DNA of 47,821 nucleotides from Acidimicrobiales bacterium (GCA_046598435.1 JBKJIL010000093.1:1-47821); one strand, 5' to 3'; shown: positions 5,306 through 44,454, counted from the stretch's first letter. Notes: generated from the sequence alone by a model not told the origin. A program made the numbers and translations.

Positions 5306-6159
5306 TGGCGGAGCTGGCCTGGGGGCGGCGGTACCTGATGTGCCCGCCGCACCACTTCGGGGTGCTCTACGAGATCAACCCGTGGATGCACGAGGCGGTG
5401 GCCGTCGAGCACGACGCGGCGTCGCTCCAGTGGCAGGACCTCGTGGCCGCCCTGCGGCTCGCCGGTGCGGAGGTCGTCACGATCGACCCCCACCCCAACG
5501 TGCCCGACCTCGTGTTCACGGCCAACGCCGGCATCGTCAACGGCAACCAGTTCGTGCCCAGCCACTTCCGGCATCCCGAGCGCCAGGCCGAGACGGAGAT
5601 CGATGCGGCCTGGTTCGCGGACCACGGCTTCCAGGTGGACCGCCTGCCTGCTGAGCTCGACCATGAGGGCGCCGGTGACGCGCTGCCGTTCACCCCCGAG
5701 AACGGCCAGACCGTCCTCGTGTCGGGCTACTCGTTTCGCAGCGACGCGGCGGCCATCGCCGCGCTGGGCGACCTGGTGGGCTGCCCGATCAAGGCCGTGC
5801 AGCTCATCGACCCGCGGCTCTACCACGTCGACCTCACGTTCTGTCCGCTCGACGAGCGCCGGGCCATCTGCGCGCCGATGGGCTGGGACAGCTACGGCCG
5901 CAAGGTGATCGAGGCCCTCGTGCCGGAGCCGCTGTGGCTGGAAGACCACGAGGCGCTGGCCTTCTGCGCCAACTCGGTGGTGGTGGGCACCACCATCGTG
6001 ATGCCGTCCACACCGCCCCGCGTCGGTCGCCAGCTCGAGGCATGGGGCTTCACGGTCGTGGAGAGCAGGGTCGACGAGTTCCTCAAGGCCGGCGGCGGCT
6101 GCCGCTGCCTCACCCTCGCCCTCGACGTCACCCTCTCGCCAACCCCCGCGAGGCAATAG
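5305..6159 (+). CDS. Amidinotransferase/DDAH superfamily enzyme (arginine dihydrolase-like, ArgZ N-terminal part)
   Basis: MCPP, YEINPWM, PDLVFTANAG, EGAGD, YHVD and EFLKAGGGCRCLTL (catalytic Cys). ATG overlaps the upstream TGA (TGATG). Confidence 0.9.
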   Translation: MAELAWGRRYLMCPPHHFGVLYEINPWMHEAVAVEHDAASLQWQDLVAALRLAGAEVVTIDPHPNVPDLVFTANAGIVNGNQFVPSHFRHPERQAETEIDAAWFADHGFQVDRLPAELDHEGAGDALPFTPENGQTVLVSGYSFRSDAAAIAALGDLVGCPIKAVQLIDPRLYHVDLTFCPLDERRAICAPMGWDSYGRKVIEALVPEPLWLEDHEALAFCANSVVVGTTIVMPSTPPRVGRQLEAWGFTVVESRVDEFLKAGGGCRCLTLALDVTLSPTPARQ

Positions 6160-6245
6160 GTTCCGCGACCTCGCTCTCGAGGCAATTGGTTCCGCATGCG
6201 GAACCAATTGCCTCGAGGTTGCGAGCGCGGAACCTATTGCCTCGC
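6148..6245. repeat. Palindrome family A, left copy (98 bp nested inverted repeat)
   Basis: Outer arms GCGAGGCAATAGGTTCCGCG (6148-6167) and its exact reverse complement (6226-6245). The centre is a perfect 42-bp palindrome CTCGAGGCAATTGGTTCCGCATGCGGAACCAATTGCCTCGAG (6176-6217). Four GAGGCAATWGGTTCC units in total, tandem pairs 29 bp apart. Confidence 0.97.
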
Positions 6246-6295
6246 CACCCGCCGCCGTTCCAGGGACTGTCACAGGGCCGCACCATTCTTTCGGG

Positions 6296-7243
6296 ATGGA
6301 TCGACACGGACGTGATGCTCGCCTGGCGCTGCTCGCCGGCCGCCAATCCGGAGCGTTCTCCTTTGCCCAGGCCCACAAGGCCGGGTTCGCGAGAGCCACG
6401 ATCAGCCGACGCCTCGCGTCGGGAGCATGGGCGCGGTTGCACCCGGGCGTGTACGCGCTGGCCGCCACCCCCGTGACGCGGTACCTGCAGCTGTGGGCAG
6501 CCGTCCTCGCCGCGGGACCGCAGGCAGTCCTCAGCCACGAGTCGGCCGCGCTGGTCCACGGTGCGGAGGACCTCCCGCCGGAGCCGATCACCCTCACCAA
6601 CCCGCACGGTCGGCACCACCGGCTGCAGGGCGTCGTCGTCCACCAGATCGACGACCTCGCCCGTCGCCACCGAACGGCCGTGGATGGACTACCCACGTCC
6701 ACGGCCGCTCGCTCGGTGATCGATCTGGCCGCCACGCAAGACGGATCCACCGTGGGGAGGGTCGCCGACGACCTCGTGCGGGCGAAGCGCACCTCTTACG
6801 GCGCCATCGCCTCGGTGCTCGCCGACGTGGCCCGCCCCGGCAAGCCGGGCGTCGAGGTTGTGGCGGCGGTCCTCGAAGCCCGCACCGCGGGGCACGTACC
6901 AGCGTCGTCGGCCCTCGAGCGGCTGCTGTTCGCCACCCTGGAAGCGGGCGGGCTCCCCGCTCCGGCGCGTCAGGTCCGGCTACCGGGCCGAGGGCCGGTG
7001 ACCGGCTTGGTCGACGGCGCGTACCTCGACGCGCAGATCGTCCTCGAGGCCGATGGGCGGCGGTGGCACACCCGCATGGACGCCGCCCGCCGGGATCGTG
7101 AGCGCGACGCGCAGGTCGTGCGGGCCGGGTGGGTTCCGCTGCGCTTTGTGTACGAGCAGCTGCAGGGCGACCCCGCCGGCGTGTGCGCGATCGTCGCGGA
7201 CACCCGAGCGCTCCGGCTGATCCAGCTGCAGCGGGCGGCGTGA
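6296..7243 (+). CDS. AbiEi-like N-terminal wHTH plus DUF559/Vsr-like PD-(D/E)xK nuclease domain protein
   Basis: N-terminal LAGRQSGAFSFAQAHKAGF...WARLHPGVY; middle LSHESAALVHG and GLPTSTAARSVIDLA; C-terminal SALE...GLPAPARQ...VDGAY...LEADGRRWH...DRERDAQVVRAGWVPLRF. Confidence 0.85.
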   Translation: MDRHGRDARLALLAGRQSGAFSFAQAHKAGFARATISRRLASGAWARLHPGVYALAATPVTRYLQLWAAVLAAGPQAVLSHESAALVHGAEDLPPEPITLTNPHGRHHRLQGVVVHQIDDLARRHRTAVDGLPTSTAARSVIDLAATQDGSTVGRVADDLVRAKRTSYGAIASVLADVARPGKPGVEVVAAVLEARTAGHVPASSALERLLFATLEAGGLPAPARQVRLPGRGPVTGLVDGAYLDAQIVLEADGRRWHTRMDAARRDRERDAQVVRAGWVPLRFVYEQLQGDPAGVCAIVADTRALRLIQLQRAA

Positions 7244-7247
7244 CGAG

Positions 7248-7358
7248 TCAGACCGAGCGCTGCAGGTACCGACTGCCGGTCTCCTCGTACCCGAGTCGGC
7301 CGTAGTAGTCCGCCATAGCGGGGTCGGCAACCACGTTGAGCACGCGTCGTCCGCCCGT
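7248..7358 (-). pseudogene. C-terminal remnant of a GNAT-family acetyltransferase
   Basis: Minus-strand translation TGGRRVLNVVADPAMADYYGRLGYEETGSRYLQRSV* matches the GNAT C-terminal motif (A..(F/Y)Y..LG(F/Y)). The frame runs into the palindrome and hits a stop near 7443, and there is no N-terminal half. Confidence 0.55.
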
Positions 7359-7452
7359 GAGGCAATAGGTTCCAGTCGGGCGCTCTCGAGGCAACTGGTT
7401 CCACTGGCGGAACTGATTGCCTCGAGACTGCCCCGGTGGAACCTATTGCCTC
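7359..7452. repeat. Palindrome family A, right copy
   Basis: GAGGCAATAGGTTCCA (7359-7374) and TGGAACCTATTGCCTC (7437-7452) enclose an imperfect 42-bp inner palindrome (7385-7426). Same 29-bp unit spacing and same 94-bp span as the left copy (6150-6243). Confidence 0.96.
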
Positions 7453-7533
7453 GCCGACCTCCAGGTGGCGGTCGATCTCGGGACACCGACTTGCTCGGGG
7501 ACCCCGTTGGTGGCCACAGGTGATCGTGGCCGC

Positions 7534-7950
7534 TCAGGCGGGGTGATCAGCCACAAGCGCTTCGGCACCCGCCCGCACCGCCTCCCGGACGGCGGCCACC
7601 GACAGCGTGATGGACACCGCGGCCAGCACCAGGTGGACGGCGATGAAGGCCGCCTCGTGGTCGCCGGTGGCGATGCCGGCCGCCCGGACCACCCACACGC
7701 CGATCGTCCAGGCCGCCAGGGCCTTCACGGCGAGGCCGCGCCACGAGGACCCATGCCACACGGCGTGGCCCACGGCCAGGGCCAGCACGGTGAAGCTCAT
7801 GGCCAGCCCGGTGCGACCCCACTTCTCGCCGCCGCTCAGGGCATCGTCGCCCCAGATGTTGCCGATCCGGGTGGTCCAGACCAGCAGCGTCCAGACGACG
7901 AGCGCGATCGCTGCGGGCAGACGGCGAGGCGACATGCGGCGGGACGACAT
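7534..7950 (-). CDS. Hypothetical four-TM membrane protein
   Basis: Four hydrophobic helices, WTTRIGNIW motif, GC3-rich codons. Start is uncertain (7935/7950/7968). Confidence 0.75.
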   Translation of the reverse strand: MSSRRMSPRRLPAAIALVVWTLLVWTTRIGNIWGDDALSGGEKWGRTGLAMSFTVLALAVGHAVWHGSSWRGLAVKALAAWTIGVWVVRAAGIATGDHEAAFIAVHLVLAAVSITLSVAAVREAVRAGAEALVADHPA

Positions 7951-7975
7951 GCCGTCGACGGTAGCCACCGGCTAT

Positions 7976-7993
7976 CTTGACCGGACAGTCAAG
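7976..7993. promoter_or_regulatory. Possible operator palindrome in a divergent promoter
   Basis: CTTGAC-CGGACA-GTCAAG lies between the divergent membrane-protein and acyl-CoA dehydrogenase genes. Confidence 0.4.
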
Positions 7994-8016
7994 TTTGTAC
8001 TCCGAGGGGACCCCAC

Positions 8017-9279
8017 ATGGCCGACCAGCCCACGCTCGAGCAGTTCCGCGACGAGTGCGTCGCCTTCCTCGATGCCAACGCCAAGCTGCGTCAGGCCGAG
8101 GACAAGACGTTCGTGTGGGGCGAGGGCGATGACGACGTCGCCATGTTCGAAGAGGTGGACCGCGAGACCGAGGCACGCGAGCTGGCCGCCGCCAAGGACT
8201 GGCGAGCCCGCAAGTACGACGCCGGCCTCGGCTACATCACGGGCGCCGAGGAGTACGGCGGGCGCGAGCTCCCGGGTCCCTACGACCGGCTCTATGCCAG
8301 CCTCGAGGCGAAGTACGACGTCCCCGGCCAGGGGTTCTTCGGCATCGGCCTCGGCATGGTGGCGCCCACCATCAAGGATCACGCGCAGCCCCACATCAAG
8401 GCCAAGTACCTCCCGGCGATGTACCGAGCCGACCTGGTCGGCTGTCAGCTCTTCAGCGAGCCGGGCGCCGGCTCCGACCTCGCCGGCCTCACGAGCAAGG
8501 CCGAGCGAGACGGCGACGAGTGGGTCATCACCGGCCAGAAGGTGTGGACCTCCGGCGCGCAGTACAGCGACATCGGCGAGATCATCTGCCGCACCGATCC
8601 CGACCTCCCCAAGCACAAGGGCCTCACCGGATTCATCGTGGACATGCACGCCTCAGGCGTGGAGGTGCGCCCGCTGCGCCAGATGACCGGCGGCGCGTCC
8701 TTCAACGAGGTGTTCTTCAACGAGGTGCGGGTGCCCGACGACCATCGCCTCGGCGACGTGAACCAGGGCTGGTCCGTGGCGCTCACGACGCTCATGAACG
8801 AGCGGTCATCGATCGGCGCCGGCGGGGGTGGCGGCGGGCTGGGCGTCGCCAACGTCACCCGCCTCGCCGAGATGCTCAAGCAGTTCGGCCTCGCCAACAG
8901 TGCCGTGCACCGCGACGAGCTGATGGACATCTACACCCGCTACCAGGTGGCCAAGCTCACCAACCAGCGAGCCCTCGACAAGATCAAGGCCGGGCAGCTG
9001 CCGGGGCCCGAGATGTCCATCGCCAAGATGGCCCTCACCGACAACCTCACCCGCACGGGCGCCTTCGTGGCCAAGGTCCTGGGACCCCGCCTGCAGGCCG
9101 ACACCGGCGAGTGGGGCACCTTCGCGTGGTCGCAGTTCATCTGCGGATCGCCGGGGATGCGCATCGCGGGCGGCACCGACGAGGTGCTGCGCAACATCGT
9201 CGGGGAGCGGGTGCTCGGCCTGCCGAAGGACTCGGGGATCGACTCGAACAGCCCGTTCAAGGACATCCTCAAGAACTAG
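8017..9279 (+). CDS. Acyl-CoA dehydrogenase
   Basis: CQLFSEPGAGSDLAGL, ITGQKVWTSGA, FNEVFFNEVRVP, IAGGTDEVLRNIVGERVLGLPK. Confidence 0.95.
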   Translation: MADQPTLEQFRDECVAFLDANAKLRQAEDKTFVWGEGDDDVAMFEEVDRETEARELAAAKDWRARKYDAGLGYITGAEEYGGRELPGPYDRLYASLEAKYDVPGQGFFGIGLGMVAPTIKDHAQPHIKAKYLPAMYRADLVGCQLFSEPGAGSDLAGLTSKAERDGDEWVITGQKVWTSGAQYSDIGEIICRTDPDLPKHKGLTGFIVDMHASGVEVRPLRQMTGGASFNEVFFNEVRVPDDHRLGDVNQGWSVALTTLMNERSSIGAGGGGGGLGVANVTRLAEMLKQFGLANSAVHRDELMDIYTRYQVAKLTNQRALDKIKAGQLPGPEMSIAKMALTDNLTRTGAFVAKVLGPRLQADTGEWGTFAWSQFICGSPGMRIAGGTDEVLRNIVGERVLGLPKDSGIDSNSPFKDILKN

Positions 9280-9283
9280 CGAG

Positions 9284-9823
9284 CTAGGCCGCCCCCGGGC
9301 CGGCCAGCTGGGCCTCGATGCGGTCGACGACCTCGGCCACCACCGACGGCACCGGTTCGGTGCGCTCCATCGTCGGCGTGAGCCCCTGGGTGTGACGCCG
9401 CTCGACGCGCTCTCGGTTGGTGTGGCTGCCCGCGAAGGCCACCCCGAAGATGAACAGCGCGAACAGCGCCGCGCCGGTGGCCACGACCCAGCCGCCCAGC
9501 AGGTAGCCCACCCCGACGAGGATCGCACCGCTGATCGCGCCCACGGCTGGGAGCGCGCTCGTCTGCTTGGTGGCGGCCACGTAGGCCGCGGCACGGTTGG
9601 CCCCCGCCAGTCGGCCCCGCACCTTGCCCTCGAAGGTGGCCTGGGAGATCGGCACCAGTGCCTTGCGCACCGACTCCACCTCACCGTGGGCCAGCGCACG
9701 GTCGAGCCGGGCCAGGTCGCCGGCCACGACCGGCCAGGCGGTGGCGGCCAGATGGGCGACGCGCAGGTCGGCCAGGATCTGGCGGGCCTCGCGCTCGATG
9801 TCCTTGGGCAGCTGGACCGGCAT
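9284..9823 (-). CDS. Hypothetical membrane protein, CATASP-like helical domain split by a two-TM hairpin
   Basis: ATG at 9823 lies 2 bp after the rnhB stop. Amphipathic helices, two TM segments, C-terminal EPVPSVVAEVVDRIEAQL. Confidence 0.65.
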   Translation of the reverse strand: MPVQLPKDIEREARQILADLRVAHLAATAWPVVAGDLARLDRALAHGEVESVRKALVPISQATFEGKVRGRLAGANRAAAYVAATKQTSALPAVGAISGAILVGVGYLLGGWVVATGAALFALFIFGVAFAGSHTNRERVERRHTQGLTPTMERTEPVPSVVAEVVDRIEAQLAGPGAA

Positions 9824-9825
9824 CG

Positions 9826-10572
9826 TCAGAACAGCTGCTGCTGGTAGCGCAGCGCAGGGTCGACGGGGGCCGGCGGCACGAGGCGCGGCACGCCACCCCA
9901 TGGCAGGTGATCCATGAACACCCAGCTGCGACGATGGATGGCGGATGGTCCGAGGCCCTGCAACGCCACCTTGTGCTTCGGGCAGGGGTAGCCCTTGTTG
10001 AGCTCGAAGGCCCAGTAGGGGTGGTGCTCGGCCTCGGCCCGCATGATGCGGTCGCGGGTGACCTTGGCGAGGATCGAGGCGGCTGCGATCGACAAGCAGC
10101 GGGCGTCACCCTTCACGAGCATCTCGCTGGTGCCGGCGCCCACGAAGTCCCACTTGCCGTCGAGCAGCACGCGCTGGGCGGGCAACCCGAGCGCGTCGAG
10201 GGCCCGCTGCGCGGCCAGGCGCTGCGCCTCTGACATGCCGAGGTCGTCGCACTCCTCCTCGCTGGCGTGGCCGACCGACCAGGCCACGCACCAGTCCGCC
10301 ACCCGGTCGAACAGCGCCTCGCGCTCGCGCTCGGTGAGCATCTTCGAGTCGCGGATCTTGTTGACCCGTCGATCCTTCGGCACGACGGCGGCGCCGAGGG
10401 TGAGCGGACCGGCCCACGCGCCACGACCCACCTCGTCGATCCCCACCACCACCTCGTGGCCCTCCGCCCACAGCCGGCGCTCGGTGTCGAGCGACGGCGC
10501 AGAGCGCTTGAGCGCCTTGCGCAGCACTGGCGCCGAGCGAGGTGCTCGGGTGGAGGCACCGGCGATCGACAT
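9826..10572 (-). CDS. rnhB: Ribonuclease HII
   Basis: GIDEVGRGAWAGP, RDSKMLT, LLDG, VKGDARCLSIAAASILAKVTRD, NKGY, IHRRSW. Confidence 0.96.
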   Translation of the reverse strand: MSIAGASTRAPRSAPVLRKALKRSAPSLDTERRLWAEGHEVVVGIDEVGRGAWAGPLTLGAAVVPKDRRVNKIRDSKMLTEREREALFDRVADWCVAWSVGHASEEECDDLGMSEAQRLAAQRALDALGLPAQRVLLDGKWDFVGAGTSEMLVKGDARCLSIAAASILAKVTRDRIMRAEAEHHPYWAFELNKGYPCPKHKVALQGLGPSAIHRRSWVFMDHLPWGGVPRLVPPAPVDPALRYQQQLF

Positions 10573-10672
10573 CGCTCCGAGGGTAGAGCATTCGGCCGAC
10601 GCCGCGACCGAGCCTGAGAGGGTTCACAGCCGACGGCGACCCGATCCACCCACAGCGGGCGACACTGGTGGC

Positions 10673-11359
10673 ATGCGCGTGCTGCTCGTGGAGGACGAGG
10701 TCGGCCTGGCCGGCGCCCTCGCGCGCGGCCTCGCCGCCGAGGGCTTCGAGGTGGAGGCCGTGCACGACGGCATGGCGGGGTTGGAGCACGCGGGCGACCC
10801 CCGATACGCCGCCATCATCCTCGACATCATGCTCCCGGGGTGCAACGGCTACGTGATCTGTCGCACCCTGCGCGAGGAGGGCGTGTGGACTCCGATCCTC
10901 ATGCTCACCGCCAAGGACGGCGAGTGGGACGAAGCCGAGGCCCTCGACACCGGCGCCGACGACTTCCTGTCGAAGCCCTTCTCGTTCGTCGTGCTGGTGG
11001 CCCGGCTGCGAGCCATCCTGCGCCGCGGCGCAGCTCCTCGCCCGGCCGTGCTCGCAGTGGGTGACCTCCACCTCGATCCCGCCACGCGGGAGTGCCACCG
11101 CGACGGCGTCGCCATCGAGCTGACGGCGCGCGAGTTCGCCGTGCTCGAGCAGCTCATGCGCCACGACGGCGAGGTGGTCACGAAGGGGGCGTTGCTCGAG
11201 CAGGTCTGGGGCCAGGACGGCGAGGCCGATGCCAACGTGGTTGAGGTCTACCTCGGGTACCTCCGCAAGAAGGTGGACGCCCCGTTCAACCGCCGCTCGC
11301 TGCGCACCGTGCGCGGCGCGGGCTACCGCGTCGTCGACGATCGGGCCCAGGCGCCGTGA
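10673..11359 (+). CDS. OmpR/PhoB-family response regulator
   Basis: MRVLLVEDE, ILDIMLPG, LMLTAK, GADDFLSKPF, NVVEVYLGYLRKK, TVRGAGY. Confidence 0.95.
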   Translation: MRVLLVEDEVGLAGALARGLAAEGFEVEAVHDGMAGLEHAGDPRYAAIILDIMLPGCNGYVICRTLREEGVWTPILMLTAKDGEWDEAEALDTGADDFLSKPFSFVVLVARLRAILRRGAAPRPAVLAVGDLHLDPATRECHRDGVAIELTAREFAVLEQLMRHDGEVVTKGALLEQVWGQDGEADANVVEVYLGYLRKKVDAPFNRRSLRTVRGAGYRVVDDRAQAP

Positions 11360-12756
11360 CCGAAGGCGCCGCGACCGAGGGGGCCGTGACCAGTGCGCCG
11401 GGCCGGTGGGGTGACGGCATGCGCGACGGACTGCGGAGCGTGCGGGTCCGCCTCACCCTGACGGCCACGGTGGTGACGGCCGGGGCGGTGCTCCTTGCCG
11501 CCACCTGGCTGGTGCACACCGTGGAGGGCTCGCTCACCAGTCGGCTCCACGACGAGGGAACGGCCCGCCTCAACGCCTTCCGCGTCGTCCTCGAGCACGG
11601 CGGCAGACCCGACCAGCTCGATCTGGCCGCCGCCGCACCCGGCGGCGGGTACGTCCAGGTGGTGCTGAACGGGCAGGTGGTGGCCTCCAGCCCCGCCGGA
11701 CGCCGGCTGCCGCCCCTGTACACGTTGGAGCCCCACGACGACGTGGTGCGCATCGACGAGATCCCGATGGCGTTCACGGAGCAGACGGTGCACGGCGCCG
11801 CCGGCGAGGTGCGACTCCTCGCCGCGGCACCGCTGGATCCGGTGCTGCGCGGCGTCGACGCCGTCAAGGAAGGCCTGACGGTGTCGTTGCCGCTCCTCGT
11901 GGGGGCCGTCGCCCTGCTCGTGTGGGTGCTGGCCGGACGGGCACTGCGACCCGTCGAGTCGATCCGCAGCGAGGTGGAGGCCATCACCGGCACCACCCTC
12001 GACCGGCGGGTGCCCGTGCCCCGCTCGGGCGACGAGGTGGCCCGGCTGGCCTGCACCATGAACGCCATGCTCGACCGCCTGCAGGATGCGTCGACCCGTC
12101 AGCAGCGCTTCGTGGCCGACGCCTCCCACGAGCTCCGCTCACCGGTGGCCGCCATCCGCACCGAGCTCGAGGTCGCCCAGCGCACGGCGGCTCCAGACGA
12201 CTGGCCCGCCATCGCCGAGCGGCTGCTGAGCGAGGAGGCACGGCTGGAGGCTGTCATCACAGATCTGCTGCTGCTGGCGACCCTCGACGAGGGCGCCCCG
12301 CTGCCCGACTCCGTCGCGGTCGACCTCGCCGAGGTGGCCACGGAGGAGGCGCGCCGGCGGGCCCCCCTCGGGGCCACGGTCGAGGTGGACGCTCCGGCGC
12401 CGGTCATCGTCCAGGGCAGCCGGACGCAGCTTCGGCGAGCCGTCGCCAACCTGCTCGACAACGCCGGCCGCCACGCTCGCAGGACCGTGCGGGTGTCCGT
12501 CCACCAGCGAGACGGGATGGCCCGCCTCCTGGTGGACGACGACGGGCCGGGCATCCCGGAGGCCGATCGAGCGCGGGTCTTCGAGCGCTTCACCCGCCTG
12601 GACGACCACCGCACGAGGGGCAGCGGGGGTGCCGGGTTGGGCCTCTCGTTGGTGTGTCGCATCGCCGAGCACCACCACGGCTCCGTGCACGTCCACACGG
12701 CACCGCTCGGCGGTGCCCGGCTCGTGCTCGAGCTGCCGAGCACGACGGGCCGCTGA
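11356..12756 (+). CDS. HAMP-domain sensor histidine kinase
   Basis: Two TM helices, HAMP domain, H-box ADASHELRSP, N-box NLLDNA, DDGPGI, GAGLGL. GTGA overlap with the regulator. Confidence 0.95.
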   Translation: MTEGAATEGAVTSAPGRWGDGMRDGLRSVRVRLTLTATVVTAGAVLLAATWLVHTVEGSLTSRLHDEGTARLNAFRVVLEHGGRPDQLDLAAAAPGGGYVQVVLNGQVVASSPAGRRLPPLYTLEPHDDVVRIDEIPMAFTEQTVHGAAGEVRLLAAAPLDPVLRGVDAVKEGLTVSLPLLVGAVALLVWVLAGRALRPVESIRSEVEAITGTTLDRRVPVPRSGDEVARLACTMNAMLDRLQDASTRQQRFVADASHELRSPVAAIRTELEVAQRTAAPDDWPAIAERLLSEEARLEAVITDLLLLATLDEGAPLPDSVAVDLAEVATEEARRRAPLGATVEVDAPAPVIVQGSRTQLRRAVANLLDNAGRHARRTVRVSVHQRDGMARLLVDDDGPGIPEADRARVFERFTRLDDHRTRGSGGAGLGLSLVCRIAEHHHGSVHVHTAPLGGARLVLELPSTTGR

Positions 12757-26240: not shown

Positions 26241-27641
26241 ATGGCGACTTGGGTGCTGGTCTCCGTGCGATCCCGGGTCACGGCGGCGGCCGGCGTGGCC
26301 GCCTTCGTGGTGCTCACCGGAACCGGTGCGGTCTTGGTCCGCAACCAGGAGACCACCCTCACCGCCACCCTCGACGAGCGGGCCCTGAGCGACGCCCGCG
26401 CCATCGGTCGCCAGATCACCGACGGGCCGGTGCCCACGGTGCTGACCGGCCTCGGCGACGAGGACACCGTGGCCCAGGTGGTGACGCGCGACAGTCGCGT
26501 GGTGGTGGCCTCCGCCAACGCCGCGGACCTGGCGCCCATCGCCCCGTGGCCGGAGGGGGGCCGGAGTCGGGCCCGCGACATCGGTCGCCTTCCGGTCGAC
26601 GACGCCCCGTTTCGGGCGGTGTCCGTGCTCATCGACTCGTCGCCACCGGTGGCGGTCCACATCGCGGCCACCACCGACGACATCAGCCAGAGCGTGCGGG
26701 CGCTGCGATCCTCCCTCCTCGTCACCGTGCCGCCAGTGGTGCTGCTGCTGGCTGCCCTCACCTGGTGGCTGGTCGGTCGCACGCTGCGGCCCGTGGAGTC
26801 GATCCGCACCGAGGTGGAAGCCATCCACGGGGGCGCCCTGCACCGGCGCGTCCCTGTCCCCCGCTCCAACGACGAGATCGGCCGGCTGGCCCGCACCATG
26901 AACGCCATGCTCGATCGCGTCGACGAGGCGTCGGGGCGTCAGCAGCGCTTCGTCGCCGACGCCTCCCACGAGCTGCGCAGTCCGCTCACCCGGATGCGCA
27001 CCGAGGTGGAGGTGGACCTCTCCCATCCCGAGGGCGCCGACCTGGCCGCCACCCACCGCAGCATCCTCGAGGAGGCCATCGGCCTGCAGGCGCTCGTCGA
27101 TGACCTGCTGCTCCTCGCCCGCACCGACGCCGAGGCACCGATGGCGCGGGCGGAGCCGGTGGACCTCGCGGAGGTCGTGCGAGACCAGGCCTTCCGCATG
27201 GGCGCCCGCTCACGGGATGGCACGGCGGATGGCACGGTGGACGTCGCGGTGGAGGTCGCGCCCCTCGACACCGCCTGGGTGCACGGCGAGCGGTCGGGCC
27301 TGGAGCGCGTCGTCGCCAACCTGCTCGACAACGCCGTGCGGCACGCCCGGGGCGCGGTGCGCGTGGAGCTGAGCGCGGGCTCGGCCGCTGACACCGTCGA
27401 GCTGGCGGTCAGCGATGACGGACCGGGGATCCCCGCCGCCGACCGAGCTCGGGTGTTCGAGCGGTTCGCACAGCTCGACGACTCCCGCCACGACGGGGGC
27501 ACCGGTCTGGGCTTGGCCATCGTGGCCGAGATCGTCCGACGCCACGGGGGGACGGTGGCCATCGACCCCGACCACGCCGCGGGCGCCCGGTTCGTGGTGC
27601 GGTTGCCGGTCGTGGATCGCACGGCCGCACCACCTGCCTAG
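26241..27641 (+). CDS. HAMP-domain sensor histidine kinase
   Basis: Two TM helices, ADASHELRSP, NLLDNA, DDGPGI, GTGLGL. Confidence 0.95.
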   Translation: MATWVLVSVRSRVTAAAGVAAFVVLTGTGAVLVRNQETTLTATLDERALSDARAIGRQITDGPVPTVLTGLGDEDTVAQVVTRDSRVVVASANAADLAPIAPWPEGGRSRARDIGRLPVDDAPFRAVSVLIDSSPPVAVHIAATTDDISQSVRALRSSLLVTVPPVVLLLAALTWWLVGRTLRPVESIRTEVEAIHGGALHRRVPVPRSNDEIGRLARTMNAMLDRVDEASGRQQRFVADASHELRSPLTRMRTEVEVDLSHPEGADLAATHRSILEEAIGLQALVDDLLLLARTDAEAPMARAEPVDLAEVVRDQAFRMGARSRDGTADGTVDVAVEVAPLDTAWVHGERSGLERVVANLLDNAVRHARGAVRVELSAGSAADTVELAVSDDGPGIPAADRARVFERFAQLDDSRHDGGTGLGLAIVAEIVRRHGGTVAIDPDHAAGARFVVRLPVVDRTAAPPA

Positions 27642-36123: not shown

Positions 36124-37008
36124 GTGCGATCCCTCACCACATCCCATCGGCGCTTGCACGCGCCAGCCGCTCCCGACCGGTTGCTCGACACCGTGGCCGA
36201 CCTGGTCGACCGGGCCGATCTCGACGGCCTCGACGGCCTCGACGGCGCCCACCAGATCGTGCGGGTCGTCGACGACGGCGACCACCTCACGGTCGGCACC
36301 CGGGCCCTGCCCCCCGGCACCCACCCGTTCACCGAGCTGGCCGGGTGGACCGCACCGGCGAGCTGGGCCATCTTCGGGTTGCGCGTGCGCGGCCAGGGCC
36401 GCCACCTCACGCTCGATGGGCCGCCGGAGGCCACCACTGCGACCTATGTGATCGACCGGCGCGGCGCCGAGCGCTCCATCCTTCGCACCGGTGCCCGGTC
36501 CACGCGGTTGCCGGGACCGGCCATGGGAACCCTCCCCGACCTGTGCCGCCGGGTGCTCGGACTGCCCACCGCTCCCGCACCCGCCACCAGCGCCTCCTTC
36601 TGGACCACGCGCTGGATGGATGCGCTGCTCGAGTCGTGGCATGCGCCGGGCGGGCGCGACGAGCTGCGGTCATGGCTCGCTCTGGCTCGCCGCCACCCGG
36701 CGGCAGGCACGAGCGACACCGGCGACCTGGCGGAGCCGACTCGCCTCGTGCAGGTGGCCACCGCCCATGCCGAGCGGTGGACCTGGGCGCGGCTGCGGGC
36801 CGAACCGACCGTGCTCTGCCTCCCCGATGGCGAGCTCCCGCCCACGGTCAGCGAGTGGATGGACGACGGCTTCCTCGCCCGCTGGTCGCTCGGCGCCTTC
36901 CCCGAGCCGGCGACGCTGCTCCAGGACCTGCTGAGCCTGCTCCCCGACGATCTGCGCCGGCCTCTGCTGGAGACGGTCGTCGCCCTCTTGGAGCCCGATC
37001 CCGCCTGA
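36124..37008 (+). CDS. Hypothetical protein
   Basis: Long ORF with GC3-rich codons (HPFTELAGWTAPASW, CRRVLGLPTAP, WMDDG). Start uncertain (36031-36124). Confidence 0.7.
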   Translation: MRSLTTSHRRLHAPAAPDRLLDTVADLVDRADLDGLDGLDGAHQIVRVVDDGDHLTVGTRALPPGTHPFTELAGWTAPASWAIFGLRVRGQGRHLTLDGPPEATTATYVIDRRGAERSILRTGARSTRLPGPAMGTLPDLCRRVLGLPTAPAPATSASFWTTRWMDALLESWHAPGGRDELRSWLALARRHPAAGTSDTGDLAEPTRLVQVATAHAERWTWARLRAEPTVLCLPDGELPPTVSEWMDDGFLARWSLGAFPEPATLLQDLLSLLPDDLRRPLLETVVALLEPDPA

Positions 37009-37084
37009 GGCGGGGCGGCGCGCACCGTATGCTCCCGCCCGTGCGACATCCGGTCCATCCTGTGCCATCCCAGCGTCCTCGGCC

Positions 37085-38548: not shown

Positions 38549-38551
38549 TCC

Positions 38552-39775
38552 TCAGCCGAGGGCGCCGCTGGCCTGCAGGCCCGCGATCTGCTCGTCGTCG
38601 TAGCCGAGGACGTCGCGCAGCACCGCCGCAGTGTGCTCGCCCGCGGTGGGCGCCTTGGTGGGCAGGGGCAGCTCCTCGCCGATCACCTTGATGGGCGAGG
38701 GCACCTGGTCGTTGCCCACGCGCTCCTTGGGCAGCCAGGGCAGGCGGTCCTGGAACTGCGGGTCGTCGGCAAGGGTCTGGGGCGTGTTGACCGGGGCGAT
38801 GGGGGTGTTGGCTTCGCCGCCGAAGGCGACCCACGCCGCCGTCGTGCGAGAGCGGAAGATGTCGGCCAGCTCCCGCCGCAGCTCCTCGTTGCCGCGGGCG
38901 TGGTCGGCGTACTTCGATCCCGGGTGCCGTTCGAAGAGGTCGGGCCGGCCGATCCCCGTGCAGAAGTTCTCCCAGAACTCCCGCTCCGACGACATGAACA
39001 AGATGTGCCCGTCGGCGGTCTCGTAGAACTGGTAGCGCACGCCGTCGCGCATGCCGGCCGTGCCGGGGGCCCGCCGCTCGTAGTCGTCGGCCTTGTTCCC
39101 GGTGACCTCGGTCTCGGGGCGCTCGTAGGCCTTGTAGGTCTCGCTGCGCAGCCAGTCCATGGCCGCCGCGGCGTCGGACTGGGCGATCTCGAGACGGCAC
39201 GGCTCGCCGGTGGCCCGGGCCCGGGTGATCCCCGCCAGCACGCCGAGGGCACCGAAGAGGGGACCGGCGTGGATGCCCACCGACGGGTGCTCCGGGATGG
39301 CGCAGAAGCCCTCGTCGGTGGTGACGGGCTGCACGAGGCCGGCCCACACATCGTAGGCGATGCCGTGGCTGGGCATGTCCTTGTAGGGCCCGGTCATGCC
39401 ATAGCCCGAGATGGTGCAGAACACGATCCTCGGGTTGACGGCCAGGCAGGCGTCGTAGCCGACGCCGCGCTTGTCGAGGCCGCCGGGACGCATGGCCTCG
39501 ATCACGGCGTCGGCGCCTCGCACGAGCTCGAGGAACACCGCCTTGCCCTCCTCGGTGCGGAGGTCGAGCGTGATCGACCGCTTGCCCCGACTGATGTGGA
39601 GGTGCATCAGCGAGGTGCCCTCGACGATGGGCCAGGTCATCTCCCGGATGTAGTCGCCCGACGGCGGCTCCACCTTGATGACGTCGGCGCCGAGGTCGGC
39701 CAGCGTGGTGGTGATGGCGCCGGGGCCGAGCATCGAGCACTCGATGATGCGGATGCTCTCGAGGGGGGCGGTCAC
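38552..39775 (-). CDS. CaiB/BaiF family III CoA-transferase
   Basis: LADLGADVIKVEPPSGD, RGKRSITLDLR, ISGYGMTGPY, GEHTAAVL. Confidence 0.93.
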   Translation of the reverse strand: MTAPLESIRIIECSMLGPGAITTTLADLGADVIKVEPPSGDYIREMTWPIVEGTSLMHLHISRGKRSITLDLRTEEGKAVFLELVRGADAVIEAMRPGGLDKRGVGYDACLAVNPRIVFCTISGYGMTGPYKDMPSHGIAYDVWAGLVQPVTTDEGFCAIPEHPSVGIHAGPLFGALGVLAGITRARATGEPCRLEIAQSDAAAAMDWLRSETYKAYERPETEVTGNKADDYERRAPGTAGMRDGVRYQFYETADGHILFMSSEREFWENFCTGIGRPDLFERHPGSKYADHARGNEELRRELADIFRSRTTAAWVAFGGEANTPIAPVNTPQTLADDPQFQDRLPWLPKERVGNDQVPSPIKVIGEELPLPTKAPTAGEHTAAVLRDVLGYDDEQIAGLQASGALG

Positions 39776-40455
39776 GGGATGTCCTCCGTCGTCGCGAGGG
39801 GGCTGCCGGGCCCCGGGGTCATGAGCTCCTCACGCCAGCGGGTGCACCACTGGCGAGCCGTGGCCGGCCACGGATCGCCGTCGCGGAGCAAGGCGGTGTG
39901 GGCGGCCACGTCGGTGGCCCAGATGGTGCACACCTCGGTGTCGTTGAGCACGGCGTCGTACAGGCCGACCAGCGTGATGCCGCGCGCCGCCATGGCTGGC
40001 GCCCGTTCGGCGCGGGTGGCGGCGAGGTAGTCGGGCCCGGCGCCGGGACGCACCTCCGACAGCTCGTGCACGAACCAGGAGCCGTGCACGTCATCGGCGG
40101 CCAGCGCCGTCCTGGTCGGGCAGCCCGGGGCGCCGCGGAGCAGCCGGTCGAAGCCACCGCTGCGCCGCGTGTAGGCCTCGTCCCACCAGTCGGCCAGCTC
40201 GACGTTGGCGGCCTTGTCGACGTTGGTCCGCCGGGCCAGGCGCGCCCATCCGTCCCAGCCGTCGATCTCCCAGACGTTCACCACCTGCGGCCAGCGACCG
40301 GTGGTGCCGACCACCTCCCAGGTGCCCAGCAGGTCGAGCCCGCCGTCGGCTGCGGCCGCCGCGTCGAAGGCGACGGCGTGCTCCATGTAGGCCCGGCCGC
40401 CCCGGCCCACGATGTCGATGACCTCGTGCAGGAAGAGAGGGTGCCGATCTGCCAT
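39772..40455 (-). CDS. NIPSNAP-like dimeric alpha/beta barrel protein
   Basis: Two repeats starting LFLHEVID and WFVHELSEVRPG; LLGTWEVVGTTGRWPQVVNVWE. Confidence 0.75.
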   Translation of the reverse strand: MADRHPLFLHEVIDIVGRGGRAYMEHAVAFDAAAAADGGLDLLGTWEVVGTTGRWPQVVNVWEIDGWDGWARLARRTNVDKAANVELADWWDEAYTRRSGGFDRLLRGAPGCPTRTALAADDVHGSWFVHELSEVRPGAGPDYLAATRAERAPAMAARGITLVGLYDAVLNDTEVCTIWATDVAAHTALLRDGDPWPATARQWCTRWREELMTPGPGSPLATTEDIP

Positions 40456-40478
40456 GGCGGCGAGGATGATGACACACT

Positions 40479-40497
40479 ATCTGACGCCCCGTCAGAT
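40479..40497. promoter_or_regulatory. Operator-like palindrome ATCTGACG-N3-CGTCAGAT
   Basis: Perfect 8-bp arms in the 60-bp divergent intergenic region. Confidence 0.6.
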
Positions 40498-40515
40498 TCC
40501 GCCTGGACAAGGACC

Positions 40516-42753
40516 ATGGACCTCTCCTTCACACCCGACCAGGACGCCCTCCACGAGGCGACTCGACGGCTCTACGCCAAGGAGTCGCACGGCGAGCGGG
40601 TGCGGGAGGCCGAGGCGACGGGGTTCGACCCGGCGCTCTGGGCGGCGGTGGTGGCCATGGGGCTGCCGAGCATGGCCGTGCCCGAGTCGGCCGGCGGCGC
40701 CGGCGCGTCGCTCACCGACCTGGCCGTCGCGGTGGAGGTCCACGGCGCTCACCTGGGCTCGGTGCCGCTCGTCGAGACAGCCGTGGCGGCGCGGCTCCTC
40801 GCCCGGCTGGGCGAGCTGGGCGCGGCGCTGCTGGCCCGAGTCGTGCAGGGCGCAACCGCGACGATCCGCTGGCCAGAGGCCGGCTCCGGGCCGACGGCCT
40901 ACGCCGCCGTGGCCGAGGTCGTCCTCGCCGTGGACGGCGACCGCGTGCTGGTGGTCGACCCGGCGGGCGTGCGCCCGACGCGGGGCCTGGCCGGGCTGGG
41001 CCTCGGCCACGTCGCCACCGACGAACCGGCTGCGGTCAGGGCTGCCGGCACGGTCGTGGTCTCGGCCCCCCTGGTCGCGACGGCGGCCGCCACGGCGCTC
41101 GACGAGTGGCGAGCGCTCACCGCTGTCGCCCAGGCCGGCCTGGCCCGAGCGACGCTCGAGGTGGGCATCCAGTACGCCAAGGACCGCCACCAGTTCGGCG
41201 TGCCCATCGGCAGCTTCCAGTCGCTGCAGCACCGCTTCGCCGACCTGCACGAGCGGGTCGACGGCAGCCGGCTCCTCGCCTACCAGGCCGTCTGGGCCCT
41301 CGACGAAGACGACCCGCGCGCCCCGATGCACGCCGCCCAGGCCTCCTGGTACTGCGGGCAGGTGGCCGACGAGGCGGCCGGGTTCTCGCTCCACGTGCAC
41401 GGCGGCTACGGCTTCATGCTGGAGTACGACGTTCAGCTGCACGTGCGACGGGCCAAGGCCACCCGTCTCCTCCTCGGGAACCCGCGCCACGAGCTGTCCG
41501 TGATCGCGTCGCGCCGCTGGGGCGCCGACGCGGCGACTCCCGAGGCCGTCGTCGCGGCCGCCACCAGCCGCCCCACCCGGCCGGGCATGGACTTCCGCTT
41601 CGATCCCGCCACCGAGGCCTTCCGAGCCGAGGTGCGGGCGTTCATCACAGCCCACCTGCGGCCGGAGGTCATCGAGCGGGCCCATGCCACCGGGACGATG
41701 CACGACTGGGACTTCCACCAGGCTCTGTGCGACCGCGGCTACCTGGCGTCGGGCTGGCCCACCGAGGTGGGTGGCCTCGGTCGCGATGCCATCGACCAGA
41801 CGCTGCTGATGCAGGAGCTCTATGCCGCCGATGCCCCCATCGACGGGCTCAACATCGCGTCGATGGTGGGCGCCACCCTGCTCGTGTGCGGGACCGAGGC
41901 CCAGAAGGCGGAGATCCTCCCGGGCATCCTGCGCGGCGAGGTCATGTGCTGCCTCGGCTACAGCGAGCCCGATGCTGGCTCCGATGTGGCGGCGGTGGCC
42001 ACCAAGGCCGTGCGCGACGGCGAGACGTGGGTGATCGACGGCCAGAAGATGTTCACAACCATGGCCCACGAGGCCCACTACGTGTTCCTGCTCACCCGCA
42101 CGAACACCGAGGCCGCCAAGCACAAGGGCATGACCATGTTCCTCGTGCCGATGGACACCCCCGGCATCGAGATCACGCCGGTCGAGACGATGGGCGGGGA
42201 GCGCACCAACATCACCTTCTACAGCGACGTGCGCGTGCCCGACTCGTGGCGCGTCGGCGAGGTCGACGCCGGGTGGAGCGTGATGCACGCCGCCCTCGTG
42301 TACGAGCGCAACTCGGCCAACTGGGGCGAGCCCGACCACCTGGTGGAGGCCGTCGCCCGGTGGGCGCGGGCGGCCGATGCCGGCGGGGCCCCCCGCCCGT
42401 TCGACGACGTGCGGGTGCGCGAGACGCTGGCCCGGTGGAGCACGGAGCTCGAGGTCGGCCGGCTGCTCCTGTTCCGCTCGGCGTGGCTCTCGGCACGGGG
42501 GGAGATGCCCCAGGTGGAAGGGTCGATGGCCAAGCTCCACATCACGGAGGCCTTCGCGGCGGCGTCGTCCGAGCTCATCGACCTGTTGGGCTCGGCGGGG
42601 CTGGCCGCCGCCGACGACGAGGCCGCCGTGCTGGGCGGGTTGGTGGAGCACGCCTTCCGCCACGCCGTGGTCACCACCATCTACGGCGGCTCCAGCGAGG
42701 TCCAGCGCGAGATCATCGCCGGCCGGGGCCTCGGCCTGCCCCGGAGTCGGTAG
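40516..42753 (+). CDS. Fused two-domain acyl-CoA dehydrogenase (FadE34/ChsE3-like architecture)
   Basis: Domain 1: MDLSFTPDQ...RHQFGVPIGSFQSLQH...HGGYGF. Domain 2: MDFRFD...CLGYSEPDAGSD, GQKMFTT, IYGGSSEVQREII. Confidence 0.93.
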   Translation: MDLSFTPDQDALHEATRRLYAKESHGERVREAEATGFDPALWAAVVAMGLPSMAVPESAGGAGASLTDLAVAVEVHGAHLGSVPLVETAVAARLLARLGELGAALLARVVQGATATIRWPEAGSGPTAYAAVAEVVLAVDGDRVLVVDPAGVRPTRGLAGLGLGHVATDEPAAVRAAGTVVVSAPLVATAAATALDEWRALTAVAQAGLARATLEVGIQYAKDRHQFGVPIGSFQSLQHRFADLHERVDGSRLLAYQAVWALDEDDPRAPMHAAQASWYCGQVADEAAGFSLHVHGGYGFMLEYDVQLHVRRAKATRLLLGNPRHELSVIASRRWGADAATPEAVVAAATSRPTRPGMDFRFDPATEAFRAEVRAFITAHLRPEVIERAHATGTMHDWDFHQALCDRGYLASGWPTEVGGLGRDAIDQTLLMQELYAADAPIDGLNIASMVGATLLVCGTEAQKAEILPGILRGEVMCCLGYSEPDAGSDVAAVATKAVRDGETWVIDGQKMFTTMAHEAHYVFLLTRTNTEAAKHKGMTMFLVPMDTPGIEITPVETMGGERTNITFYSDVRVPDSWRVGEVDAGWSVMHAALVYERNSANWGEPDHLVEAVARWARAADAGGAPRPFDDVRVRETLARWSTELEVGRLLLFRSAWLSARGEMPQVEGSMAKLHITEAFAAASSELIDLLGSAGLAAADDEAAVLGGLVEHAFRHAVVTTIYGGSSEVQREIIAGRGLGLPRSR

Positions 42754-42783
42754 CCCGACCCCATCGACTTGACAGAGCTAGTC

Positions 42784-42798
42784 CTGACGCACCGTCAG
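42784..42798. promoter_or_regulatory. Second CTGACG-N3-CGTCAG palindrome
   Basis: CTGACG-CAC-CGTCAG, same arms and spacing as the site at 40479-40497. Confidence 0.45.
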
Positions 42799-42854
42799 AG
42801 GGTCTTGTGCCTCAAATCACACTGGTGAATGTTGCGGTTTCGTGTCGTCTTCGG

Positions 42855-42870
42855 GTTACCATTTCGTAAC
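42855..42870. promoter_or_regulatory. GTnAC-N6-GTnAC box (GlnR/MtrA-type)
   Basis: GTTAC-CATTTC-GTAAC in an AT-richer promoter region upstream of a secreted-protein gene. Confidence 0.4.
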
Positions 42871-42973
42871 TCACCAGCCGCCCGAGCGCGGCCCGCCGCT
42901 GGGGCGCAGTGATCCGTCGATCCCAAACCTGGATCGACGCGCGCCCCGGTCCCCCCACAGGAGGAACCCGACC

Positions 42974-43297
42974 ATGTCTGGGAGCAACCCCCCGAGTACC
43001 AACGGCTCGCCGCGCATCGCGCGACGGGCCCTCACGACGAGCATCGCCGCGCTGAGTGCCGTGGCCGTGCCTGTCGCACTGGTGGCCATCAGCGCCGGCG
43101 GCCCCGCCGACTCGGCCAACCCCCGCGAGGCATCTACCAGCACCTCGTTCCTCAGCGGCGAGCTCCAGCTCGTCCGGGCCCGCTCGACCTCCCGAGCGGT
43201 CGCCTACCAGGACCTGGCCCAGCCGGCCGACCCGGTCGTCGTCACCGCCCCTCCCCCGGCGCCGACCACGACCGCGCCCCCGCCGCCCGCCCACTGA
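42974..43297 (+). CDS. Exported protein N-terminus ending in a Pro/Thr linker; probably truncated
   Basis: AGGAGG RBS, signal/TM segment RRALTTSIAALSAVAVPVALVAIS, ends ...TAPPPAPTTTAPPPPAH* with no downstream domain. Confidence 0.6.
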   Translation: MSGSNPPSTNGSPRIARRALTTSIAALSAVAVPVALVAISAGGPADSANPREASTSTSFLSGELQLVRARSTSRAVAYQDLAQPADPVVVTAPPPAPTTTAPPPPAH

Positions 43298-43389
43298 GCC
43301 GCCGTAGTGCCCGCTTCGCGCGCCACGGCCGGCTGGCCGACTGGCGAAAGCTACCGCTCGGCTGGAGCGTTCAGCGGGTTCACGGATCG

Positions 43390-43447
43390 GATGAGAGTGC
43401 ACTGAGCGCTGTCTTGCGAAGATCGAACAACGCTCCGTGCACTCTCG
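43390..43447. repeat. Palindrome family B, left copy
   Basis: GAGAGTGCAC-T-GAGCG...CGCTC-C-GTGCACTCTC (43393-43446), a ~20-bp imperfect stem. Confidence 0.9.
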
Positions 43448-43504
43448 TGATCGGGATCCTCCGAAACGCCTCGCGGCCGGCGCCCCGTCCGGGATGCTCG
43501 CACC

Positions 43505-44410
43505 GTGTCGAGTGTTCCGCATCTTCGCCTCGGTGTGCCCGGGTGGCCTGAGGTGTTCCGCGGGTCCGCGGCTGTCCGCGCTGGGCTCGTCACCCCGGCC
43601 CGGCTCCGCGGGCCGAAGTACCGCCGGGTGTTCCCCGACGTCTATGTCCCAGCCACGGACGAGGCGCCGGGTCTCGCGCTGCGCTCGCGAGCAGCATTCC
43701 GGTACGCCGGGGACCGGGGCGTCCTGTCGGGCTACTCGGCTGCCGAGCTACTCGGTGCTTCCTGCGCGCCGCTCGACGCACCCGCCGAGGTGATCGTGGT
43801 GAGCGGTGGGCTTCGCCCTCGACCGGGCCTGCAGGTGCGCCGTGATCGGCTCGAGGCCGATGAGGTGCGCGAATGCGACAACATGTGGGTGACTTCGGAG
43901 CTTCGCACGGCGTACGACCTGGCCCGGCAGCCCGAGGTGATCGAGGCGGTCGTCGCCCTCGACGCGCTGGCGAGGAAGGGGCGTTTCGCACCCGGGGATG
44001 TGCGGCGGCTCGCCGAGCGATATCCGCGGGCCCGGGGCTGCGCCGGGCTGTCCCGTGCCGTCGAGCTCGCCGACGCCCGCGCAGGCTCGCCGATGGAGTC
44101 GCGACTTCGGCTGGTGCTCGTGCAGCGCGGGCTCCCCGTTCCTGAGGTGCAGTTCCCCGTGCTCGACGACGCGCGGCGCCGTGCCGTCTGGCTCGACATG
44201 GCTTATCCCGAGCACCGCATCGGTATCGAGTACGAGGGTGCCGACCATGTACGTCCCGAGATGGTGCTCCGTGACGCGGGCCGATACACGAAGCTGGTCG
44301 ACGAGGGTTGGCGGATCTACCGGTTCACGAAGTTCGAGATGTACACCGACCCGGATGCGATCGCCGCAACGATCGGCCGGGCCCTGCTCGCCCCGGCGAG
44401 AGTGCGGTGA
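43505..44410 (+). CDS. AbiEi-like/DUF559-type nuclease domain protein
   Basis: YRRVFPDVYV, LSGYSAAELLG, VTSELRTAYDLAR, GSPMESRLRL, GLPVPEVQ, LDMAYPEHRIGIEYEGADH, D..R...L...GWRIYRF. Confidence 0.85.
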   Translation: MSSVPHLRLGVPGWPEVFRGSAAVRAGLVTPARLRGPKYRRVFPDVYVPATDEAPGLALRSRAAFRYAGDRGVLSGYSAAELLGASCAPLDAPAEVIVVSGGLRPRPGLQVRRDRLEADEVRECDNMWVTSELRTAYDLARQPEVIEAVVALDALARKGRFAPGDVRRLAERYPRARGCAGLSRAVELADARAGSPMESRLRLVLVQRGLPVPEVQFPVLDDARRRAVWLDMAYPEHRIGIEYEGADHVRPEMVLRDAGRYTKLVDEGWRIYRFTKFEMYTDPDAIAATIGRALLAPARVR

Positions 44411-44454
44411 GCGTTGTTCGATCATGAGCAATCAGCGCTCGGTGCAATCTCATC
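44397..44454. repeat. Palindrome family B, right copy (inverted relative to the left)
   Basis: 44398-44451 matches the reverse complement of 43393-43446 at 42 of 54 positions ungapped (hand count). It contains the gene's TGA. Confidence 0.88.

Follow-up and report, generated by a model that had tools for sequence, protein, structure and literature searches.

Two genes in a 47,821-nucleotide stretch of DNA from an Acidimicrobiales bacterium (GCA_046598435.1, JBKJIL010000093.1:1-47821), which we call the window, each encode a nuclease related to AbiEi and DUF559 proteins, and each lies between two copies of a palindromic element of its own. Gene 1 and gene 2 are best explained as belonging to a large family of actinobacterial nuclease genes that are single-copy, each with its own family of short palindromic repeats. 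We lean slightly towards the view that such an AbiEi-Vsr nuclease and its palindromes form a partnership like that of repetitive extragenic palindromic (REP) sequences with REP-associated tyrosine transposases (RAYTs), built on an enzyme unrelated to RAYT. A first-pass annotation of the window had proposed a RAYT-analogous unit of nuclease and palindrome for both genes. This is well supported for gene 1, which has the bracket, 14 solo copies of its element and a repeat variant that matches the gene, but for gene 2 only the bracket was found. The window is one contig (C49) of a 3.47-Mb assembly (genome G000; 71% G+C, 336 contigs, 87% complete), and its relevant features are the following.

6148-6245, no strand: element A, upstream copy, ending 50 nucleotides (nt) before the ATG of gene 1
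6268-6289, plus strand: PafBC-type promoter-like motif, TGTCAC (6268-6273), 10 nt, CATTCT (6284-6289), ending 6 nt before the ATG
6296-7243, plus strand: gene 1, 315 amino acids (aa), with a predicted AbiEi-like two-domain DNA-binding module (residues ~1-200) and a predicted Vsr/DUF559 (EDxHD-type) nuclease (residues ~205-300)
7359-7454, no strand: element A, downstream copy, 115 nt past the gene 1 stop, 80% identical to the upstream copy and in direct register
43390-43447, no strand: palindrome B, upstream copy, a 58-nt hairpin ending 57 nt before the GTG of gene 2
43505-44410, plus strand: gene 2, 301 aa, with a DUF559/MTES_1575 nuclease domain and an AbiEi-like middle region (PADLOC AbiEi, residues 63-199)
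44397-44454, no strand: palindrome B, downstream copy, a decayed hairpin that overlaps the gene 2 stop

The two nuclease genes and their palindromic elements

Both open reading frames (ORFs), which start with ATG in gene 1 and GTG in gene 2, kept the coordinates and the AbiEi/DUF559 identity that the first-pass annotation had given them. Pfam DUF559 (PF04480) matches both proteins above its cut-off of 20.6 bits (gene 1, E 1.1e-4, 22.4 bits; gene 2, E 2.5e-4, 21.3 bits), and gene 2 also matches MTES_1575 below cut-off. Pfam AbiEi_4 matches gene 1 (E 1.3e-10), and its winged helix-turn-helix was not detected by Pfam in gene 2. The PADLOC AbiEi models match both proteins (E 3.8e-33 for gene 1, E 7e-7 for gene 2), no NCBIfam model matches either, and over 275 residues the two share 28% identity. 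A profile built from 26 members of the family matches 3HRL, a DUF559 structure (E 1.5e-8), and 3R3P, the catalytic domain of I-Bth0305I (E 2.3e-4); one row of this alignment comes from an unpublished genome, G004, which was also among the genus genomes searched and on which no claim depends.

An AlphaFold model of the gene 1 protein (predicted local distance difference test score, pLDDT, 89.8) is consistent with two parts. Its residues ~1-200 resemble the whole AbiEi antitoxin 6Y8Q (E 6e-6) and Rv2827c (1ZEL). Its last ~100 residues, compared with Foldseek, resemble 3R3P (template modelling score on target 0.70), 3HRL (0.67) and Vsr (1CW0/1VSR, 0.45-0.50). Gene 1 has E251, D253, H258 and D267, each conserved at 90% or more in the 26 sequences, and gene 2 has E at the D253 column of the alignment. 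We presume that these four residues are catalytic, drawing on the EDxHD name (PMC3239194). As judged from sequence and model, the gene 1 protein is an AbiEi-like DNA-binding module fused to a Vsr-like (EDxHD-type) nuclease.

No AbiEii or transposase had been seen next to either gene, and the wider search agreed: AbiEii (PF08843) is neither adjacent to either gene nor present anywhere in the 87%-complete assembly, and no Y1/RAYT transposase (PF01797) was found there. Since AbiEii is missing from the neighbourhood and the assembly, neither gene is classed as an AbiE toxin-antitoxin pair.

The upstream copy of element A contains four 15-mers (6150-6164, 6179-6193, 6200-6214 and 6229-6243), two direct and then two inverted, separated by spacers of 14, 6 and 14 nt; the inner 15-mers of the downstream copy carry 1-2 mismatches. 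The A 15-mer has 8 matches in the window against 0.03 expected, and the B 16-mer has 4 against 0.42 expected, numbers reached in 0 of 100 shuffles in each case. All of them flank the family's own gene, and the window holds no others, as had been claimed. When folded as single-stranded DNA, the two A copies gave z = -15.0 and -9.2 and the upstream B gave z = -4.6; for the downstream B the value was -1.9, and 6 of 200 shuffles folded as well. The original description, a long hairpin upstream of each gene with a second copy downstream, was right in that both genes are bracketed, but family A forms no simple long hairpin and the downstream B is inverted relative to the upstream B (79% complementary over 58 nt).

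What is conserved in element A can be read from its 15 full copies in the genome. The outer 15-mers are 99% conserved, the inner ones 91-92%, and the central 6-mer (mostly GCATGC) 89%; conservation falls to 59-64% in the two 14-nt spacers, which are complementary to each other at only 4-9 of 14 positions. A sister genome shows the same pattern. Because the 15-mers are conserved while the spacers are neither conserved nor complementary, the conserved feature of element A looks, at the level of sequence, like a set of sites in fixed arrangement, which would suit a multimeric DNA-binding protein, and not like a long hairpin. Uniform 15-mers and scrambled spacers coexist at sites that are species-specific.

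Some further observations concern the A elements. In sister genome G015 (loci L190-L200), the inner A-type sites occur as two alternative 15-mers that have only their last 6 bases in common. These alternatives are mixed within single elements, so that many element centres are not self-complementary and the inner arms often cannot pair. In the window, the last codons and the TAG stop of a DDAH-like amidinotransferase gene fall inside the first 15-mer of the upstream element A (6145-6159). Between the gene 1 stop and the downstream copy lies an open stretch of 37 codons on the minus strand (7250-7361), which ends in a stop (...YYGRLGYEETGSRYLQRSV) and reads as the C-terminal end of a gene truncated by the downstream palindrome. 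We take the encoded fragment to be acetyltransferase-like.

Bracketing and repeat specificity across the family

Five genes in this genome encode DUF559 proteins, each with a palindrome 50-100 nt upstream. In four, a clear copy of the same family lies just past the stop; the fifth (C25) carries tandem palindromes upstream but downstream shows only a partial match of ~15 nt. We scored bracketing in relatives as the local similarity of the 250-nt upstream and downstream flanks, with the 99th percentile of 3376 unrelated flank pairs as threshold. A first sample of 70 loci combined 30 loci from a search of genus genomes with 40 listed matches from nine contiguous assemblies, the latter excluding short fragments (a few hundred bases) and loci already taken; dropping 9 of the 70 as fragments or for short flanks left 61 intact homologues. 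A bracket was present in 44 of these, and 40 exceeded the maximum of the 3376 unrelated pairs. The second, class-wide sample (80 loci minus 7 duplicates, 3 partial matches and 7 with short flanks or odd length) gave a bracket in 46 of 63.

As a genome-wide control, we scored 1628 crude ORFs of at least 150 aa. Ten of them exceeded 20.5, of which 2 are DUF559 genes and the others include patatin, APH and ABC-permease genes. Among the outcomes that would speak against it, the first-pass annotation had named palindromes no commoner beside these genes than beside others, and this is contradicted by a bracket rate of ~72% in the family versus 0.6% of control ORFs. DUF559-family genes number 2 to 13 per genome in these genomes. 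Of 86 brackets, 42 have their two flanking copies in direct and 29 in inverted orientation, with 15 ambiguous.

An unbiased hairpin census of the genome found seven families with ~104 sites, ranging from 2 to 43 copies per family.

FAM0: 43 sites; no cognate gene found in the assembly
Family C: 18 sites; cognate the C202 gene, bracketed
Family A: 16 sites (14 solo); cognate gene 1
Family F: 13 sites; no cognate gene found in the assembly
Family D: 8 sites; cognate the C153 gene, bracketed
Family E: 4 sites, only beside the C25 gene
Family B: 2 sites, only the flanking copies of gene 2

Thus, an enzyme gene flanked by its own repeat that is also dispersed is seen for gene 1 and for the C202 and C153 genes, but not for gene 2, and the proposed count of solo palindromes across the genome came out positive for family A and empty for family B. 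Solo A copies are ~94 nt long and intergenic, with several at gene ends or contig ends. The FAM0 element is 45 nt long (TCTGTGCAC...GTGCACAGA), with compensatory changes in its inner stem, and its 43 sites include C269:22601-24317 and C319:86-1210; three FAM0 copies in a row bracket a short-chain dehydrogenase/reductase (SDR) gene and its neighbour.

The repeat family also follows the gene. All intact gene-1 orthologues (59-72% identity) have the same four-site architecture with lineage-specific 15-mers, and among the 70 loci scanned, A-like 15-mers occur only beside gene-1 orthologues or fragments of them (11 loci). In five sister genomes, the 15-mer variant that is scattered through the genome is the one flanking that genome's own gene-1 orthologue. 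Listed in the order G015/G012/G022/G006/G003, the own-variant counts are 51/0/0/0/0, 0/5/0/1/0, 1/0/21/1/1, 0/0/0/12/0 and 1/0/15/2/31, so that the diagonal reads 51, 5, 21, 12 and 31 and off-diagonal counts are 0-2 except for one of 15 between two similar variants. We also compared presence in the 23 other genus genomes covered by both the orthologue and the 15-mer searches. Nine of the 11 genomes with a gene-1 orthologue have 5-35 A-type 15-mers, and the other two (0 and 1) carry variants of their own; 10 of the 12 genomes without an orthologue have 0-1.

These data bear on the idea that the association is coincidental, with REP-like palindromes spread by other means and poorly conserved, insertion-prone genes merely sitting in repeat-rich intergenic DNA. 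With seven palindrome families in the genome, a few ordinary genes bracketed too and two dispersed families without a cognate gene, the idea has some footing. It is nevertheless very improbable and already hard to hold against the bracket rate in the family, the specificity of the repeat family to a paralogue group and to a genome's own variant, and the fact that no RAYT-type enzyme was found in the genome.

Turnover of the repeats and the promoter-like motif of gene 1

Empty sites, which the first-pass annotation had suggested seeking by comparison with relatives, were found for solo A-type elements. Seven solo sites of two sister genomes were informative, of which 5 are empty here and 2 are shared; at one empty site, the flanks align to within a few bases of the element. 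In a third sister genome, all 5 informative solo sites are empty here. The genes behave differently: the highest identity between paralogues within a genome is 67% (102 pairs), and there are no near-identical gene copies. Because solo sites are mostly species-specific, near-identical gene copies are missing (<=67%) and bracket orientation is mixed, we argue that the repeats multiply and the gene does not. No intron or intein is present at either gene. Sequencing-read contigs end at palindromes, and none spans the cassette or a palindrome.

The main rival, which does not exclude a REP/RAYT-like partnership, is a selfish one-gene cassette, in which the palindrome-gene-palindrome unit is mobile like a homing-endonuclease gene or a small transposon and solo elements are deletion scars or homing sites. 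Several loci fit it. At C104 and C273, relatives have the complete unit where the genes abut here, and because no palindrome was left at either locus, movement of a whole cassette fits them as well; at C229, one palindrome is kept here where a relative has the whole unit. Among these three gene-less alleles, then, one keeps a single palindrome and two keep none. Gene-1 orthologues occur in at least two chromosomal contexts, gene 2 has inverted terminal copies and no relative found in 29 genus or 400 class genomes, as for a recent arrival, and the nuclease shares its fold with the homing endonuclease I-Bth0305I. We nonetheless regard the cassette as unlikely. It would have to account for genes that lack near-identical copies while their repeats are multicopy, and the mixed orientation of the flanks (42 direct, 29 inverted, 15 ambiguous) fits neither a terminal-inverted-repeat transposon nor target duplication. 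Moreover, 14 solo A copies for one gene would need many cycles of insertion and deletion.

Two simpler schemes were rejected as general rules. Target duplication of a pre-existing hairpin disagrees with two empty sites that lack a palindrome and with the 29 of 86 brackets that are inverted, and a terminal-inverted-repeat transposon disagrees with the 42 of 86 that are direct and with the lack of multicopy genes. What lies in the C229 slot (C229:523-1622), which family-F palindromes bound, differs between genomes: an APH-type phosphotransferase gene here, a DUF559 gene in one sister genome, and the two together in another (L019, L020). Such a pattern looks like differential loss by recombination between palindromes.

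Gene 2 stands apart. Searches for its relatives came back empty both in 29 genus genomes (E <= 1e-30) and in 400 class genomes (E <= 1e-35), and at its locus related genomes align only to ~43295, with nothing syntenic downstream in the 9 loci examined. Showing the bracket only, gene 2 is best read as a lone unit that may have been acquired recently.

Gene 1 is preceded by a promoter-like motif, which begins 22 nt past the end of the upstream element A. The PafBC consensus is given as tGTCgg(N10)tA(N3)T, with GTC strictly conserved (PMC8635444). The geometry at gene 1, TGTCAC-N10-nA-N3-T, matches this consensus, with TGTCAC in place of tGTCgg. TGTCAC lies 22-30 nt before the start of gene 1, of three other DUF559 genes here and of 8 of 8 intact gene-1 orthologues examined. 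The strict motif followed 3-14 nt on by a start codon marks 14 genes in the genome, including two DUF559 genes (gene 1 and another), RmuC, a RadA-like gene, two PD-(D/E)XK nucleases, a DNA methylase and DUF222; those beyond the window lie on contigs C26, C27, C43, C161, C162, C192, C303 and C320. The genome also has two adjacent WYL-domain genes. Because the motif ends 6 nt before the ATG, we infer a leaderless transcript from gene 1, and, given the motif, gene 1 is probably induced together with the PafBC DNA-damage regulon.

The position of element A just before this motif suits another reading, that of a regulator with operator and terminator, in which the AbiEi-like module would autoregulate through the upstream palindrome, the downstream copy would terminate transcription or loop the DNA, the solo elements would form a small regulon, and the nuclease would be secondary or inactive. 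AbiEi antitoxins are described as repressing their own promoters through inverted repeats (PMC7319586), and conserved 15-mers with free spacers resemble binding sites. We consider this reading quite improbable all the same. The nuclease catalytic residues are conserved across the 26 sequences. The solo elements are complete modules of ~94 nt with a fixed architecture, several of them between gene ends, and species differ in having or lacking them as whole blocks, unlike the gradual turnover expected of operators. Finally, the variant shifts genome-wide along with the gene's own copies.

A possible mechanism, related systems and other features of the window

Under the REP/RAYT-like partnership, the DNA-binding module would read the repeated 15-mers, four of which stand at fixed spacing around a conserved central GCATGC, and the nuclease domains would cut or nick at or near the element centre, by analogy with homodimeric I-Bth0305I. 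This activity would keep the 15-mers uniform and would occasionally seed new ~94-bp elements in intergenic DNA, while the gene would remain single-copy between two "home" copies and, for gene 1, would probably be induced with the PafBC regulon. We propose binding to the 15-mers and cutting near the centre because AbiEi binds inverted repeats (PMC7319586) and because I-Bth0305I, a homodimer with a footprint of ~60 bp, is reported to cut the centre of a pseudopalindrome (PMC3239194).

Several results weigh against this partnership. Seventeen of 61 and 17 of 63 intact relatives have no bracket within 250 nt, whole subgroups included, and dispersed palindromes likewise frame ordinary genes (SDR, dienelactone-hydrolase-like, patatin, APH). 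For the largest family, FAM0 (43 sites), as for family F (13), the 87%-complete assembly offers no cognate DUF559 gene, and families B and E are confined to the flanks of their own genes. With no solo copies and no gene 2 relatives found, nothing speaks for propagation of family B. Genomes G005 and G021 have ~11 A-type 15-mers each without a gene-1 orthologue, and G017 (9 = 3 + 6, no orthologue) is perhaps a third such exception, its row assignment being unconfirmed. The expected co-variation of palindrome and protein holds by paralogue group (70 loci) and by genome variant (five genomes) but not within the gene-1 group, where whole-protein and 15-mer distances are not significantly related (Mantel r 0.36, p 0.09). 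At C104 and C273, as described above, the absence of the whole unit leaves no palindrome behind. A PD-(D/E)XK nuclease alone is not known to have a strand-transfer activity by which new copies could be inserted. Among relatives, the PafBC-type motif was found before only 17 of the 61 and 15 of the 63 (for control ORFs, in a wider scan window, before 41 of 1890), and none was seen upstream of gene 2.

A more far-reaching version would make this a second, independently invented repeat-and-enzyme system in Actinobacteria. Dozens of AbiEi-Vsr lineages, several per genome, would each maintain and spread a private array of binding sites, part of them wired to the PafBC single-stranded-DNA alarm, and the contrast of near-perfect 15-mers with scrambled spacers at species-specific sites would mean that the enzyme polices or rewrites its own sites, for example by nuclease-triggered short-patch conversion. 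We hold this to be possible, with somewhat more doubt than belief.

So far, the textbook example of a lasting partnership between a bacterial enzyme and a dispersed repeat has been REP/RAYT, and whole REPINs are copied as units. Like the "REPtrons" of Proteobacteria, the gene 1 unit pairs a single-copy enzyme gene with flanking short palindromic repeats that are also scattered intergenically; in REPtrons too, as PMC8266576 and PMC8049555 describe them, a genome may have several gene and repeat families, each gene lineage has its own repeat, and the repeat population differs between related species. The differences are substantial. RAYT is a Y1 HUH tyrosine transposase (TnpA-REP), whereas the enzyme here joins an AbiEi-like binder to a Vsr/PD-(D/E)XK-type nuclease. 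Element A is built as an array of four sites with unconserved spacers, copy numbers are low (2-43 per family) and the host phylum is Actinomycetota. Because the associated enzyme is a Vsr-like nuclease and no Y1 HUH transposase was found, the unit works like a REPtron but is no member of that class.

Three other known systems share parts of the arrangement. I-Bth0305I and the EDxHD homing endonucleases resemble it in their C-terminal catalytic fold, in a multidomain build with a separate DNA-binding part and in a long target with a pseudopalindromic centre (as characterised in PMC3239194). Here, in contrast, the gene lies in no intron or intein, an AbiEi-like module forms the N-terminal part, complete repeats that also occur alone stand on both sides of the gene, and no homing into a conserved host gene was seen. 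AbiEi of the type IV AbiE systems resembles residues ~1-200 in sequence and fold, and AbiEi proteins bind inverted repeats, but AbiEii is missing from the assembly and a nuclease domain is fused instead. PafBC (RecA-NDp) promoters likewise have tGTCnn-N10-nA-N3-T directly before the start, and here the motif marks repair and recombination genes (compare the accounts in PMC8635444, PMC6789036 and PMC8223512); in our case the -26 element of the putative promoter is TGTCAC and not tGTCgg, and only a minority of the family carries the motif.

We found no publication linking DUF559/AbiEi-Vsr nucleases with palindromic repeats in the DUF559 literature, as judged by titles or the opening of abstracts, and the literature on REPIN/RAYT with nucleases and palindromes yielded only HUH enzymes or IS elements. 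That on extragenic palindromes and RAYT in Actinobacteria gave nothing, and that on AbiEi or Vsr-like endonucleases with repeats gave nothing relevant. If the partnership is real, such a lifestyle would have evolved more than once, with an unrelated nuclease in a different phylum, and a very common "domain of unknown function" gene family would gain a function. The origin of actinobacterial intergenic palindromes would be explained, and there would be naturally diversified pairs of a sequence-specific nuclease and its ~15-bp site. The possible PafBC link would tie repeat dynamics to DNA stress, and an enzyme that rewrites its own sites would amount to a novel means of keeping dispersed repeats uniform.

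The neighbours of gene 1 and gene 2 are the DDAH-like amidinotransferase gene, an unnamed membrane-like ORF, an acyl-CoA dehydrogenase gene and unnamed ORFs. No Rfam family reaches its gathering score in the window. Elsewhere in the window, a direct repeat of 256 nt with 79% identity (11923-12178 and 26763-27018), accompanied by a further 87-nt similarity (12409-12495 and 27279-27365), probably reflects paralogous genes of the sensor-kinase type.

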